A DNA stretch of 64,000 nucleotides from Nitrososphaeria archaeon (GTDB taxonomy: Archaea; Thermoproteota; Nitrososphaeria; Geothermarchaeales; JDFR-13). This document shows positions 13,963 to 54,077 of this stretch, in pieces. Under the pieces are notes generated by a model. That model was not told the DNA's origin. It did no database searches and worked only from the letters and a program-made list of their open reading frames with translations. The DNA is taken from positions 992,001-1,056,000 of the forward strand of contig JALWXN010000004.1 in NCBI GenBank assembly GCA_027078545.1, given 5' to 3'. Made by a program: the position numbers and the translations under genes. Numbering within the stretch: the stretch's first letter is position 1; every line of letters begins with the position of its first letter.

Positions 13963-14916
13963 TTATCTACCCCTCTCAACAACCAGCCTCCTCACATACT
14001 CAATCCTTCTACAGGCTGAGCAGACCTCCCCAGAGGATGGGCCGCCACAGACCCTACAAACCCTATACTCAACCGGCTCACCCACCTCCTCAACCCTATC
14101 CAGGAGTGGGATAAGCTTCTTCATGAAGCTCCCGAAGAGCTGGAACTTTATCATCGGCTCCCTCTCCTCCCAGAGTCTAAGTATCTCCTTCCTCCTGAGG
14201 CTACGGGCGTCGTCGGCGAAGGGGCAGTCGATCCTCTTGACGGGTAGGCCGTTGAACATAACGTAGAGAAGCACCTCATACTCAGGGGTATCGATGAGGG
14301 GCTTGACCTTCCAATAATTGTTTGGAGGGGATGGGGGGAGCACAGGCCTAAGCCTCTTTATAGACTCGTAGTCCCCAGCTATGAACGCGTTCAGCATGAC
14401 CTCAAGGGTATCGTCAAGGTTATGGCCAGTGGCAAGAATATCTACACCGAGCTCCCTAGCAGCCTTTGATAATGCCCACCTCCTAATAGTGCCACAGGTC
14501 GCACATATCTTCCTACCATACTTGGTCTTCTTAACATCAGGTATCGTTATCCCGATCTCCTCGCTATACCTAAATACGTGGAGCTCCACATCGAGGGACT
14601 CGGCCAGCTCCCTAGCCGCCCGGAGGCTATCCTCGCTATAGTCGTAGATACCGTGGTGCAGATGGATAGCTATATACCTCTTATCCGGGAAGTGCTTCTT
14701 CAGGACGGTTAGGAGGGCCGTGCTATCCTTACCCCCTGAGAGGCCTATACCTACATAGTCTCCACGGCTAAGCATCCTATACTTCTCCACAGTCTTGACT
14801 ATCCGGTTCTCGAAGAACTTGTTGAAACAGTCTAGGCATAGATACTGCCTCATGTAGCGGATATATATCTCCGCATCCCTAACCCTACACCTACTACACT
14901 TGACAGGCATCTCCAT
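13963..14916 (-). CDS. ttuA: tRNA 2-thiouridine synthetase TtuA/Ncs6 (TIGR00269-like)
   Basis: Two Zn fingers, PP-loop SGGKDS, CATC, GHNLDD, KPL, CP. Confidence 0.88.
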   Translation of the reverse strand: MEMPVKCSRCRVRDAEIYIRYMRQYLCLDCFNKFFENRIVKTVEKYRMLSRGDYVGIGLSGGKDSTALLTVLKKHFPDKRYIAIHLHHGIYDYSEDSLRAARELAESLDVELHVFRYSEEIGITIPDVKKTKYGRKICATCGTIRRWALSKAARELGVDILATGHNLDDTLEVMLNAFIAGDYESIKRLRPVLPPSPPNNYWKVKPLIDTPEYEVLLYVMFNGLPVKRIDCPFADDARSLRRKEILRLWEEREPMIKFQLFGSFMKKLIPLLDRVEEVGEPVEYRVCRVCGGPSSGEVCSACRRIEYVRRLVVERGR

Positions 14917-49300: not shown

Positions 49301-50646
49301 GATACGAGAGGCTCAGACCCAAGCCCGAGGTAATAGCGAGTCTAAGGGGAGACGAGATGGAGCCTGTAGACCTAGTGGTATACGGGGCCTACAGCACCCT
49401 GAAGAAGTCTCCTAGCCACGTCCTCAAGAAGATGGATATGGAGGCCGGGAACGTAGAGAAGAGGAGGGAGCGCCTACTAAACATCACCCTCGAGAGCGGG
49501 CATCTAAGCGTCCTAGATCAGGCGGTCTTCACGGTATACGTCTCGGACATACCCAGGCTCTCAACACTCTTCCTAGTACAGCCCCTCTACCTAAGCCATC
49601 TACAGCAGAGTATGAGGAGGGTGGAGCCCTACGGACTAACACTCCCCGAGAGCCTAGCGAAGATAGACTGGCTAGACAGCCTACTCGACAAGTCCCTAGA
49701 CCTGTACTACGAGATGGTGGGGGACGGGATACCCAAGGAGGACGCTAGATACGTCATCCCACTCTACACCTCGACAAATATACAGACCGTGGGGAACGCC
49801 AGGGAGTATACAAACCTCCTACTCCTCTCACGCCAAGAAGGCGTCCCAAGCATAACCAGGGAGATAGTCGAGGAGATAATCAAGGAGCTTAGACAGGTCT
49901 CCAAAGGACTCTTCGAGGAGTATGGGGAGAACATGAATATACTCAAGTACTACCCACCCCCGAACATGTTCCGACTCCGACGCCTAGTGGTGGATAGACT
50001 GGCTGAGGAGGGTGGAGCCCCACGCCTCATAGACTACTCAGTAGTATATAGGCCCAGCAGGGAGGAGGTTGAGGAGGCCCTGATAGGGCTTAACACACCC
50101 CTCCTATCAGTCCTCAGGAACAACGTCTACCATGTCCTGACAAAGATGAGTATATCCACCCTACACCAGTTCCTACGCCAGAGGACGCTGAGCCACATAC
50201 CAGAGTCTATATACCATGCCCTCGAGAGGAGGGACTACGTAACCCCACCCACGATCCAACGCTCCCGCTACAGGGAGAGGTATATAGAGATGGTTGGCAA
50301 GCTCCACGAGGCGTATCATAGACTGGTGAGGATGGGGATACCCAGGGAGGACGCGGTAGGAGTAGTCAGCCACGCCCACGCCATATACGACCTGGTCAAG
50401 GTGGATGGGTGGAACATCATAGGGGCGATGCCCACCAGGAGATGTGTAAAGGCCCAGTGGGAGATCAGGAGGGTGGTTGGAGACATGGTCTTCAGGATAA
50501 GGGAGGTAGACCCAGTCCTACCCATCTACAGCCTACCGGGATGCATAGTATTCGGGAAGTGTCCAGAGAAGTATCCCTGTGAGTGGAAGGAGGAGTTCGA
50601 GAGTAAGGGGCCACTTGTCAGTAGGCCTCATACTCCCACTTATTAA
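49297..50646 (+). CDS. thyX: Flavin-dependent thymidylate synthase with two tandem ThyX domains (probable CTG start; first ATG at 49357)
   Basis: GHLSVLD, QQSMR, EDARYVIP, NARE; second repeat LHQFLRQR, EDA, RRC..AQWEIR. Confidence 0.8.
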   Translation: MRYERLRPKPEVIASLRGDEMEPVDLVVYGAYSTLKKSPSHVLKKMDMEAGNVEKRRERLLNITLESGHLSVLDQAVFTVYVSDIPRLSTLFLVQPLYLSHLQQSMRRVEPYGLTLPESLAKIDWLDSLLDKSLDLYYEMVGDGIPKEDARYVIPLYTSTNIQTVGNAREYTNLLLLSRQEGVPSITREIVEEIIKELRQVSKGLFEEYGENMNILKYYPPPNMFRLRRLVVDRLAEEGGAPRLIDYSVVYRPSREEVEEALIGLNTPLLSVLRNNVYHVLTKMSISTLHQFLRQRTLSHIPESIYHALERRDYVTPPTIQRSRYRERYIEMVGKLHEAYHRLVRMGIPREDAVGVVSHAHAIYDLVKVDGWNIIGAMPTRRCVKAQWEIRRVVGDMVFRIREVDPVLPIYSLPGCIVFGKCPEKYPCEWKEEFESKGPLVSRPHTPTY

Positions 50647-51643
50647 CCCCCTCCTGGAGGGGGATAGTTATCCTACACCTCCCACCCTTGAAGCTCACAC
50701 TAATCCCACTGGCCACGGCCCGTGAAAATACATCCCTAACCATCATCTCGACACAGAGCCTACACACCTGTCTAAGCCCACCACCAGCGACATTCCTATC
50801 CACTGCACGGGATAGTAGCCTAGCCATCCTAGGATATCTACAGTACGACTTGACGACATATCCACCCTCAGAAGCATCACTACCAGCCCAGTAGAGATAG
50901 GCATAGATCTCCCTATAATGACCCAGGAGCCCCCTCTCCACGAGGTAGGACATGCCGAAGTCCCGGGCCAGCTCCACCATCAATTCCCTAGGCCCCACCG
51001 CGTCATACAGGCTATATCCATCCACATAGTCAGAGACCATATCCATATAGAGCATGAACTCCAGCCTCCTAGAGACATGGCCAAGAGACACCGTAACCCC
51101 CAGATCCATGAGCCTCCTCAGGAGAGTGTGGAAGCTGGCGCTGTCTCCACCACCCATATATCCAGTCTCCACAAGCCTAACCACATCCCTGAAATACCTA
51201 GCCATGGTCTGCCTATCCGGGGGAGACCTGAAGCTGGACATGTTGAGTATCTCCATGACACGGCCACGCTTAATGCCATACCTGTCAAGCATCCTGATCT
51301 CGATATCGCTGAGCATCTCCCTAAGCAGCCTAGAGATCCTGATCCTAGCCCTACGTAGACGGGCCTGGGGAACAGCCCCCCTAGGCACATACTCGGAGAC
51401 CCTGCTATAAACCCGGCTTATGAGATACGTGTCATACACCATGAAGAAGAGGTAGCCTAGATACCCAGGCCCAGCATAGCTGCTGGGGTCATACGTAATC
51501 GGCATCTCAACAACGGAGGAGTAGAAAGACTCATATACAACCCCCCGCCACCCAGCATCGAGATAGGCCCTCTCATACCTCCTCCCATACTCGAGGGGGA
51601 GGTAGAGGACGGAGGAGAAGTTGTCGCTGGGCCTAGGAGACAT
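50618..51643 (-). CDS. Hypothetical protein with a Cys-containing, V4R-like C-terminus
   Basis: Long ORF with typical codon usage; C-terminal YC...VCRLC...GRCRITI. Confidence 0.6.
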   Translation of the reverse strand: MSPRPSDNFSSVLYLPLEYGRRYERAYLDAGWRGVVYESFYSSVVEMPITYDPSSYAGPGYLGYLFFMVYDTYLISRVYSRVSEYVPRGAVPQARLRRARIRISRLLREMLSDIEIRMLDRYGIKRGRVMEILNMSSFRSPPDRQTMARYFRDVVRLVETGYMGGGDSASFHTLLRRLMDLGVTVSLGHVSRRLEFMLYMDMVSDYVDGYSLYDAVGPRELMVELARDFGMSYLVERGLLGHYREIYAYLYWAGSDASEGGYVVKSYCRYPRMARLLSRAVDRNVAGGGLRQVCRLCVEMMVRDVFSRAVASGISVSFKGGRCRITIPLQEGVNKWEYEAY

Positions 51644-51769
51644 CTCTAATAATTAAGAGCCCATCGGCACGGATATTTCCCCGATGTGTAACCCTTACAC
51701 GGCCTAGGCGGCACAGCCCAGAGACCCATCAATAAATCAGTGGAGACATATAGTTTATCATTGGTCGGG

Positions 51770-52711
51770 ATGAGCAAGAGGAAGTGCATGTGGTGCGGCG
51801 GGGAGGCGACCATAGAGCTTAGATACGCCAGGCTCCTACTATGCGACGACTGCTTCAAGAAATACTTCATAAAGAGGATAGCCAAGACCGTCGAGGAGTA
51901 TAGGATGGTTAGGGAGGGGGAGAGGATAGGCGTCTTCTACGACGGCTCAAAACCATCGATAGCCCTCCTAGACGCACTTCCCCAGGCACTCCCCCGACAT
52001 GAGATCCACGCCATAATGATCGACATGGGCCTACCATACTACACGATAGAGGCCCGTACACCCCTCGAGGAGATAGCCAGGGAGAGGGGTATAGAGATAC
52101 ATGTATATAGCCTGCCAGACGAGAGGGGCTACTCGATAGAGGACTTCAGGGGGACGAAGTACTGGCCACGCATATGCAGCACATGCGCCCTGCTAAAGAG
52201 GTACTACAGCTCCTACGTAGCCAAGCAGGCAGGCCTCGACGTATTAGCTACGCCACACACCCTAGACGACGCTGTAGAGCTCCTCCTCACACTACTGGTG
52301 GATGGGAAGCTCGACGAGCTGGCCAGCTTCACACCTGTACAGGAGCCGGAGTTTCCGAACCAGGTCAGGAGGGTGAAGCCCCTGATAAAGACCTATGAAT
52401 GGGAGGTGGAGAAGTATATCGAGGTATCCGGCCTAGACACGGCCGGGGAATGCCCACTGAGGGAAGGCGCCCGGAGCACCTGGAGGAAGGAGGTCCTATC
52501 CAGGTTCGAGGAGCACGAGCCAGCCTTCCTAAGAAAGATGTATAGGAGCCTCACCAAGAAGCTGGCCCCAGTCCTGAGGGAGAGGTATGAGAGGCCCAGG
52601 CCAATACCCTGTAGGATATGTGGCGGTCCAAGCACAACAGGGATATGTGGGAGATGCGTGAGGGAGATCTACCTAAGGGATAGGAAGAAGCTGGACATAA
52701 AGATAGGGTGA
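51770..52711 (+). CDS. TtuA/Ncs6 paralogue with a degenerate PP-loop
   Basis: Both Zn fingers, CSTC, HTLDD, KPL and CP are kept; SGGKDS is replaced by DGSKPS. Confidence 0.82.
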   Translation: MSKRKCMWCGGEATIELRYARLLLCDDCFKKYFIKRIAKTVEEYRMVREGERIGVFYDGSKPSIALLDALPQALPRHEIHAIMIDMGLPYYTIEARTPLEEIARERGIEIHVYSLPDERGYSIEDFRGTKYWPRICSTCALLKRYYSSYVAKQAGLDVLATPHTLDDAVELLLTLLVDGKLDELASFTPVQEPEFPNQVRRVKPLIKTYEWEVEKYIEVSGLDTAGECPLREGARSTWRKEVLSRFEEHEPAFLRKMYRSLTKKLAPVLRERYERPRPIPCRICGGPSTTGICGRCVREIYLRDRKKLDIKIG

Positions 52712-52715
52712 GGCG

Positions 52716-54077
52716 ATGGGGGAGATAATCCTCGACAGGGACACCAAGGTAATAATCCATAGGGGGGAGAACGAGATAGGCGGGACGATAATAGAGATTA
52801 GGACACGGGACGAGGCGATCATCCTAGACTTCGGCATATCCTACTCCAGGCGGAAGAAGTTCTATGACCCCCTATATAGACGGCCAAGGGGGGTTGAGGA
52901 GCTCATACGCCTAGGCATAGTACCGCCTAGGGAAGGGCTATATACCATCTGGCGCGACGATGGAGAGTATAATGAGAATCCCGAGACCGACGTGATAGGC
53001 GCCTTCATATCCCATGCCCATACAGACCACATAGGCCTACTAGCCCACATAAACGGGAACATACCCGTATACCTGGGCCACGCCGCACACCTAATTAACA
53101 ACGTATACCTGGAGAAGTCTAGGAGGGAGAGGTACAGCCTCAAGAGGAGGGAGGATATAGAAATAGAGACCTTCAGGACCGGAGACGTGATAAGTGTGGG
53201 GAGCTTCAGGGTAAGACCTATACACGTCGACCACAGCATACCCGGGGCATACTCATTCCTAGTAGAGACACCCGGCGGACTCATCCTCTACACAGGGGAC
53301 TTCAGGCTCCATGGAAACAACTATAGGCTAACCCAGGACATGGTCGCTACAGCCGAGTCTGAAGACGTCGAGCTAATGATCACCGAGGGCACCAGGGTAC
53401 ACGGCGGGACAAACATGGATGAGGAGAGGGTCTACAGGGAGATAATGAAGATAATGGATTCCTACCACGGGGAGGTCCTGGTAGAGAGCAACGCTAGGGA
53501 CTACGACAGATACGTATCGATACTGAGGGCGGCAGCCGAGACGGGGAGGAAGGTCGTGATGACCGATGAGCACCTGATATACTTCGTCAGGGGGATGTAT
53601 AGAGACCATAAGCTGAGGAGGAGCCTGGAGAGGGATATAGGCGACCCTAGAGACCTAGTCCAAGGCCTAGTCCCAGGCGGTGTAGAGAAGAGGAGGAGAG
53701 ACAAGAAGAAGGATGTCCTGGAGAAGATCATGGATGACGATGGATTCACAGTGGTGGGGGAGTATAATTATGACAGGGACAACGTACTCCTAGGATTCTA
53801 TAGGATAGTCCAGGACATCTACGACAAGGGTGGAGAAAGGATAGCCATAATAAGCAACTCAGAGCCCTTCGACGAGGAGGGTGAGACAGACGAGGCGAGG
53901 CTACGGAACTGGCTGACAGTTATGGGGGCACCCTCATATAGGGTCCACTGTAGCGGCCACATATCCATGCTAGACCTGAAGAAGATAGTCGAGAGGATAG
54001 AGCCTAGGAGGCTGAAGGTCGTACACTCAGAGTACCCCGAGCTCGTGGCGAGGTTCCTCGGGATAGGGGAGGGGTAA
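52716..54077 (+). CDS. Metallo-beta-lactamase/beta-CASP ribonuclease (RNase J-like)
   Basis: EIGG, SHAHTDH, VDHS, YTGDFR, EGT, SGH, VH. Confidence 0.85.
   Translation: MGEIILDRDTKVIIHRGENEIGGTIIEIRTRDEAIILDFGISYSRRKKFYDPLYRRPRGVEELIRLGIVPPREGLYTIWRDDGEYNENPETDVIGAFISHAHTDHIGLLAHINGNIPVYLGHAAHLINNVYLEKSRRERYSLKRREDIEIETFRTGDVISVGSFRVRPIHVDHSIPGAYSFLVETPGGLILYTGDFRLHGNNYRLTQDMVATAESEDVELMITEGTRVHGGTNMDEERVYREIMKIMDSYHGEVLVESNARDYDRYVSILRAAAETGRKVVMTDEHLIYFVRGMYRDHKLRRSLERDIGDPRDLVQGLVPGGVEKRRRDKKKDVLEKIMDDDGFTVVGEYNYDRDNVLLGFYRIVQDIYDKGGERIAIISNSEPFDEEGETDEARLRNWLTVMGAPSYRVHCSGHISMLDLKKIVERIEPRRLKVVHSEYPELVARFLGIGEG

Follow-up and report, generated by a model that had tools for sequence, protein, structure and literature searches.

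In one family of Geothermarchaeota, archaea from hot springs, the TtuA gene at the ancestral locus was duplicated, and one of the two copies (paralogue B) lost its PP-loop once, in a lineage that retained both copies. Since this loss, B has been maintained under strong purifying selection. Judged by its sequence, B belongs to the TtuA (U54-type) branch, of which it is best explained as a conserved pseudo-thiolase. Both B and its intact paralogue (A) lie in the window, i.e. the whole stretch of 64,000 nucleotides that was analysed. The corresponding genome (G000; 1.24 Mb, 92% complete) holds three paralogues, A, B and C. In the literature searched, no description of an archaeal loop-dead TtuA/Ncs2-like paralogue was found.

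The first-pass annotation had described B as a full-length reading frame without stops, colinear with A, and both statements were borne out. The frame is open from its ATG, which is where the orthologues begin, the other possible start being a GTG at 51740. B aligns with A (317-aa ORF) from end to end, including the colinear blocks that had been quoted, with 39% identity (E 6e-72). Both proteins exceed the curated Pfam cut-offs for ATP_bind_3 and TtuA_LIM_N (30.1 and 29.7 bits, respectively, for B, with a cut-off of 27 in each case). For both, the best NCBIfam model is the Pyrococcus-type TtuA, far under its equivalog cut-off, and B misses the cut-offs of TtuA (137 vs. 450 bits) and NcsA (67 vs. 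500 bits). Solved TtuA chains match B with an E of 1e-37 and about 30% identity. The AF2 model of B (pLDDT 96.4, pTM 0.93) shows in Foldseek a TM of 0.82-0.87 to TtuA structures and of 0.78 to NcsA.

The alignment with A also confirmed the change of SGGKDS into DGSKPS that had been noticed in B. The second reported change, GHNLDD into PHTLDD, is real, but its N-to-T part is ordinary, as GHTLDD is found in 12 loop-intact relatives; only the G-to-P/S replacement is peculiar to the subclade of B. Both Zn fingers and the three Fe-S cysteines are kept, as had been stated. The predicted cluster ligands C136, C139 and C228 do not vary across an alignment of 106 sequences, and all eight Zn-finger cysteines (C6, C9, C25, C28, C281, C284, C293 and C296) are present as four CxxC pairs. 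At its C-terminus, B carries a basic, Gly-terminated tail (...CVREIYLRDRKKLDIKIG; 52640-52708) that is highly conserved across the B clade, whether the loop is intact or dead. This tail ends in ...LDIKIG in B, is lacking in A and the other TtuA-like proteins, and may be an extra tRNA-binding element.

Table 1. Positions in the window of paralogues A and B, of the motifs of B and of the genes around B
Feature	Positions	Strand	Remarks
Paralogue A, intact TtuA-type	13963-14916	-	SGGKDS, GHNLDD, three cluster Cys, Zn fingers; between an aminotransferase gene and IleRS
ThyX (Thy1 domain, two matched stretches), 429 aa	49357-50646	+	conserved upstream neighbour of the B locus
341-aa protein without Pfam family	50618-51643	-	divergent from B; conserved neighbour
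Paralogue B, TtuA-fold protein, 313 aa	51770-52711	+	open ATG-started ORF; remodelled PP-loop
PP-loop remnant Y57-DGSKPS63, instead of (V/L/I)-SGGKDS	51938-51958	+	Ser55/Asp59 equivalents (T. thermophilus TtuA) are Asp/Pro
Cluster ligands C136-x-x-C139 and K143 (Lys137 equivalent)	52175-52207	+	all conserved
PHTLDD replacing GHNLDD, residues 162-167	52253-52270	+	G-to-P subclade-specific; H163, D166 and D167 (Asp161 equivalent) kept
Third [4Fe-4S] cysteine, E-C228-P-L	52448-52459	+	conserved
Metallo-beta-lactamase (MBL) / RNase-J-like gene	52716-54077	+	4 nt downstream of B

Model scores and specificity residues separate the three paralogues. A and B have TtuA-like residues at the three specificity positions that were checked, and the TtuA model scores above the NcsA model for both. 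C has the NcsA-type Glu, Arg and Arg at three specificity positions (PMC10067955), and scores best with the NcsA model. On these grounds, A and B are predicted to belong to the U54-type branch and C to be the U34-type enzyme. C is located about 355 kb upstream of the window (L003:1441-2604, reverse strand; G000:C4). It bears an N-terminal ThiS/ubiquitin-like domain (Pfam ThiS, 28.4 bits) ending in ...VVSGG, which is fused in frame to its first Zn finger, so that the carrier Gly-Gly is internal. G002 has this fusion as well, but the C of G003 and that of G001 do not. Within the family, the other genera carry a second paralogue of the GHNASD type (L036-L046), which is no orthologue of the NcsA-like paralogue (GHNLDD/AHNLDD type) found in the genus of the window; in the tree, the two types form separate clades.

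The consequences of the loop changes can be assessed from T. thermophilus TtuA, in which Ser55, Asp59, Lys137 and Asp161 are essential (PMC7138817). The variants S55A and D59A, both in the PP-loop, show no activity even with sulfide provided, and Lys137 is required for mobilising sulfur from TtuB-COSH (PMC7138817). These residues were mapped onto B by HMMER alignment to 5GHA. Ser55 and Asp59 are replaced in B by Asp58 and Pro62, while Lys137 and Asp161 are kept as Lys143 and Asp167. The PPi-binding/adenylation element is thus gone while the sulfur-handling residues remain, and adenylation of tRNA uridine by B is, from the sequence, very unlikely. As Ncs2 binds nucleotides despite its mutated residues (PMC10450187), B is best called putatively ATP-dead. 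Among 196 TtuA-like sequences, SGGxDS is present in 182 and shows a single substitution in 3 more; the loop is wrecked in only 11, all from B's subclade, and is therefore not an ordinary variation of the family. SGGxDS is the PP-loop that defines the TtuA/NcsA family, and B (DGSKPS) departs from it; for annotation, proteins of this type should not carry the name ATP-binding thiolase.

The B clade is very small, with 11 clusters at 90% identity among 5.8 billion. It has one 50% representative among 1.84 billion, the following match being A-like, with 39% identity. SGGKDS is kept in three of its members (P0009-P0011) and in the genomes G010 and G006. The ten sequences with a remodelled loop carry DGSKPS (G000 and P0001), DGSIVS (P0002), DGSIGS (P0003), TADKKS (P0004), QGDNKS (P0005), MADKKS (G003, P0006 and P0007) or LADKKS (P0008). 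In all ten, the Gly before His163 is replaced by Pro or Ser. The length of the remodelled loops and their final Ser are unchanged, and each subclade keeps its own version. Outside the loop, conservation extends to eight further dead-loop proteins, and the total is about five to nine lineages, in which the ORF is intact.

In the maximum-likelihood tree (quick IQ-TREE search), the dead-loop sequences form a single clade (support 100, stem 0.29), whose members share Y57 and W132 as newly invariant residues. This clade branches from within the loop-intact B sequences, and the basal members of B still have SGGKDS. The sister group of the entire B clade (support 100) is the family's own A clade, a relationship with a moderate support of 86; the single gene of a sister family (G014) falls outside both. 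An AU test rejected the grouping of dead-B with the A of its genus (P = 0.00018); the duplication thus predates the genus, and a recent event within the genus is rejected.

Gene order is informative about which copy moved. The order ThyX, divergent 341-aa gene, B and RNase-J-like MBL gene is common to G000, G002, G003 and two metagenome contigs. G010 and G006 have largely the same arrangement, with no match to the 341-aa gene at the locus of G006. The TtuA-type gene of the outgroup G014 also lies directly upstream of the same MBL gene. As this adjacency is common to B and to the single gene of the sister family, B is the positional descendant of the ancestral gene and A the relocated copy. The first-pass annotation had proposed a lineage-specific duplication: the pair did arise independently within one archaeal family, but the event is not recent, given the AU test, the ancestral position of B and the intact loop of the earlier-branching B sequences. 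In A-only relatives, the B gene has been deleted, not eroded.

Two other observations concern this locus. The ThyX gene encodes a duplicated-domain thymidylate synthase, and overlaps the convergent 341-aa ORF by 29 nt. In G008, an A-only genome assembled as a single contig, a 304-aa ThiN-domain gene (L057:2921-3835, reverse strand) fills the slot of B between the 341-aa gene and the MBL gene. More broadly, a TtuA-type gene and the MBL gene are neighbours throughout the order, outgroup family included (window; L006, L007, L008, L013, L050 and L052), which suggests an old operon joining a tRNA thiolase to a beta-CASP-type nuclease.

B is neither absent from relatives nor decaying with a dN/dS near 1. 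Between G000 and G002, the only pair for which dN/dS is informative (dS is saturated in all others), omega is 0.067 (NG86) or 0.044 (YN00) for B, close to the values for A (0.051 and 0.029, respectively). In the remaining dead-loop lineages, the ORF of B is intact although dS is saturated. Compared over the same pairs of genomes, the dN of B is about 1.3-1.6 times that of A. The losses of dead-B are focused. The positions conserved in A, intact-B and outgroups but lost in dead-B are 58-62, His83, Ile88, Ser92, Gly162, Leu205 and Pro267; the first nine fall within or close to the PP-loop and the G-H motif. All the cluster and Zn cysteines, K143 and D166/D167 are spared. Conversely, Tyr57, Trp132, Arg96, Pro98, Pro116, Glu124, Thr164, Thr174 and Lys256 have become invariant in dead-B, and the cluster ligands, K143, R144, H163, D166/D167, the K-P motif and all the Zn ligands are invariant throughout.

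B co-occurs with the intact copy in its relatives. A is present in all five dead-B lineages with enough contig, a count that leaves out G001 and G004, where the whole B locus, MBL gene included, is unassembled. A and dead-B share a contig, with about 38 kb between them, in the case of G000, G002, G003 and P0002. The A-type P0165 matches P0003 in its sample and in the length of the longest contig (448,826 bp). In the loop-intact-B genomes G010 (84% complete) and G006 (87% complete), no A-type gene was detected with either query. As the dead-B lineages share one ancestor, the association of A and B counts as one evolutionary event and not as five independent ones; it has nevertheless been retained in every dead-B descendant examined. 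In a genome of another genus (G013; 74% complete, 5% contamination), an A-type gene and its aminotransferase/IleRS neighbours resemble those of the genus of the window (L011, G013:C37), and this 5-kb contig may be a binning contaminant.

The reading that we tentatively prefer, with slightly less than even confidence, is that B acts as a non-adenylating partner of A. TtuA-family enzymes are dimers, so that the simplest form of this partnership would be an A:B heterodimer. A would perform the ATP-dependent step of thiolation, and B would have given up tRNA uridine adenylation with its PP-loop. Inside the A:B dimer, B would bind tRNA through its Zn fingers and tail, and its own cluster would probably serve in sulfur handling, with sulfide or a Ubl-thiocarboxylate as the bound species. 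We prefer this reading because A and B are co-retained in all dead-B lineages, because the loop was lost only where A is present, and because Ctu1/Ctu2 provide a precedent. In two related thiolases, TtuI and TtcA, the cluster has no effect on tRNA affinity (PMC12084879). With the cluster being catalytic and irrelevant to tRNA affinity in these enzymes, the conserved ligands of B argue for retained sulfur chemistry, and some such chemistry probably persists at its cluster.

Several points count against an A:B dimer. A and B share only 39% identity, and their split predates the genus. The two genes are 38 kb apart and not co-transcribed, and the loop-intact B proteins of relatives are presumably homodimers. 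A pure Ctu2-like scaffold would need neither Fe-S ligands nor K143 or D167. Finally, the A of the genus shows no complementary loss at any universally conserved position and therefore looks self-sufficient.

A bolder claim, which we consider possible but rather doubtful, is that the pair forms an obligate two-paralogue thiolase, with A adenylating and B providing an ATP-free but working [4Fe-4S] sulfur site, or else that B is the first ATP-independent Fe-S enzyme on the TtuA scaffold, e.g. a tRNA 2-thiouridine desulfidase. If true, the two-paralogue enzyme would show a division of labour that is absent from Ctu1/Ctu2, and would be an early intermediate toward the eukaryotic heterodimer.

Somewhat unlikely, in our view, is the main rival, a B that works alone, probably as a homodimer, as an ATP-independent Fe-S protein acting on tRNA or sulfur carriers, neofunctionalised after A took over thiolation. 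Its chemistry might be the desulfuration of 2-thiouridine (TudS/RudS-like), or the desulfurisation or relay of sulfur from Ubl-thiocarboxylates. The pattern of conservation fits such a protein: loss is confined to the PPi-binding elements, while the three cluster Cys, K143, D166/D167, H163 and the Zn fingers do not vary, and in two related thiolases the role of the cluster is catalytic and not in tRNA binding (PMC12084879). Y57, W132, R96, P98, P116 and E124 became invariant on the stem branch, as a new function would predict, and inside each subclade the loop is conserved (DGSxxS or xADKKS) with its length unchanged. The genome also contains four free ThiS-like genes and one E1. Nevertheless, the TtuA fold is not known to support any ATP-independent activity. 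Moreover, the desulfurisation of TtuB-COSH by TtuA needs tRNA adenylation (PMC7138817), no sulfur-carrier or desulfidase-related genes are found near B in the loci compared, and the constant retention of A beside B is left unexplained.

It is improbable that B is still a tRNA thiolase dependent on ATP or another nucleotide, with a non-canonical phosphate-binding loop. The invariance of H163 and D166/D167 (Asp161 is assigned to ATP binding and hydrolysis), the kept loop length and final Ser63, the acidic residue in every remodelled loop, and the binding of ATP, ADP and AMP-PNP by Ncs2 despite its degenerate site (PMC10450187) would suit such an enzyme. However, the positions of Ser55 and Asp59, each essential in TtuA, are replaced in every dead-loop member (Asp59 by P, V, G or K), and both loop glycines are lost or altered. 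With SGGxDS in 182 of the 196 relatives, the loop is wrecked in B's subclade only, and the two subclades have different loops, which one would hardly expect of a single catalytic solution. Lastly, the redundant duplicate turning into a pseudogene, to which the loss of the catalytic motif beside an intact paralogue and the higher dN of B might point, is hardly credible and was rejected, given an omega of 0.04-0.07, intact ORFs in about five to nine lineages with saturated synonymous sites, large invariant blocks, an AF2 pLDDT of 96, and deletion of the gene rather than erosion in A-only relatives.

Under the preferred reading, in which B assists A, the pair of A and dead-B may represent an incipient form of the pairing of a catalytic subunit with a helper that eukaryotes have. 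A and B are small and thermophilic and should therefore be good candidates for recombinant expression, by which the contribution of a loop-dead paralogue would become directly testable, a hard task with Ctu2 because of its insolubility (PMC10067955). As B keeps its Fe-S site, it would be a natural protein in which one half-reaction of thiolation, adenylation, is separated from the other, sulfur handling. The transition can be traced stepwise in one archaeal family, in which are found a single intact gene, the relocated paralogue only, and both paralogues with one PP-loop destroyed.

Among known systems, B is structurally closest to TtuA, the tRNA-5-methyluridine-54 2-sulfurtransferase (T. thermophilus TtuA and P. 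horikoshii PH0300; PDB 5B4E, 5GHA, 5MKP and 3VRH). The two share the fold, the N-terminal LIM-type and C-terminal Zn fingers, the three-Cys [4Fe-4S] site and the Lys137/Asp161 equivalents, and of the four specificity positions of B, three have a residue that is TtuA-like and not NcsA-like. B differs in the replacement of SGGKDS, with the essential Ser55 and Asp59 both gone, and it alone has the G-to-P change before the conserved His, the invariant Tyr57/Trp132 and the basic tail. With NcsA, the stand-alone archaeal U34 thiolase (M. maripaludis, PDB 6SCY), B shares the superfamily, the fold and the three-Cys cluster; unlike NcsA, it lacks a PP-loop and the equivalents of Glu88, Arg94 and Arg241, which are found in C.

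The first-pass annotation had suggested a counterpart of eukaryotic Ncs2/CTU2. Archaeal TtuA and NcsA are described as stand-alone homodimers, whereas eukaryotes need a catalytic and a degenerate paralogue (PMC10067955), and Ctu1/Ctu2 have been modelled as a heterodimer mimicking the NcsA homodimer (PMC10067955). Like Ctu2/Ncs2, B is a paralogue of a catalytic subunit, with a degenerate ATP site, conserved Zn fingers and an intact paralogue in the same genome, and it fits the scenario of the duplication of a homodimeric enzyme followed by the loss of catalysis in one copy (PMC10067955). The degenerate site of Ncs2 still binds ATP, ADP and AMP-PNP (PMC10450187). The proposed correspondence did not hold, however: the scan of B gave no match to Pfam CTU2 (PF10288), for which the only genome-wide match was elsewhere and sub-threshold, and the U34-type enzyme of the genome is C. 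Ctu2 lacks the Fe-S cysteines (PMC10067955), all three of which are kept in B, and B has none of the large insertions of Ctu2. B belongs to the TtuA-like branch, its nearest intact paralogue being TtuA-like and not the NcsA/Ncs6-like C. B is also much younger (family level) and of independent origin, having arisen within one archaeal family. B resembles Ctu2/Ncs2 in concept only.
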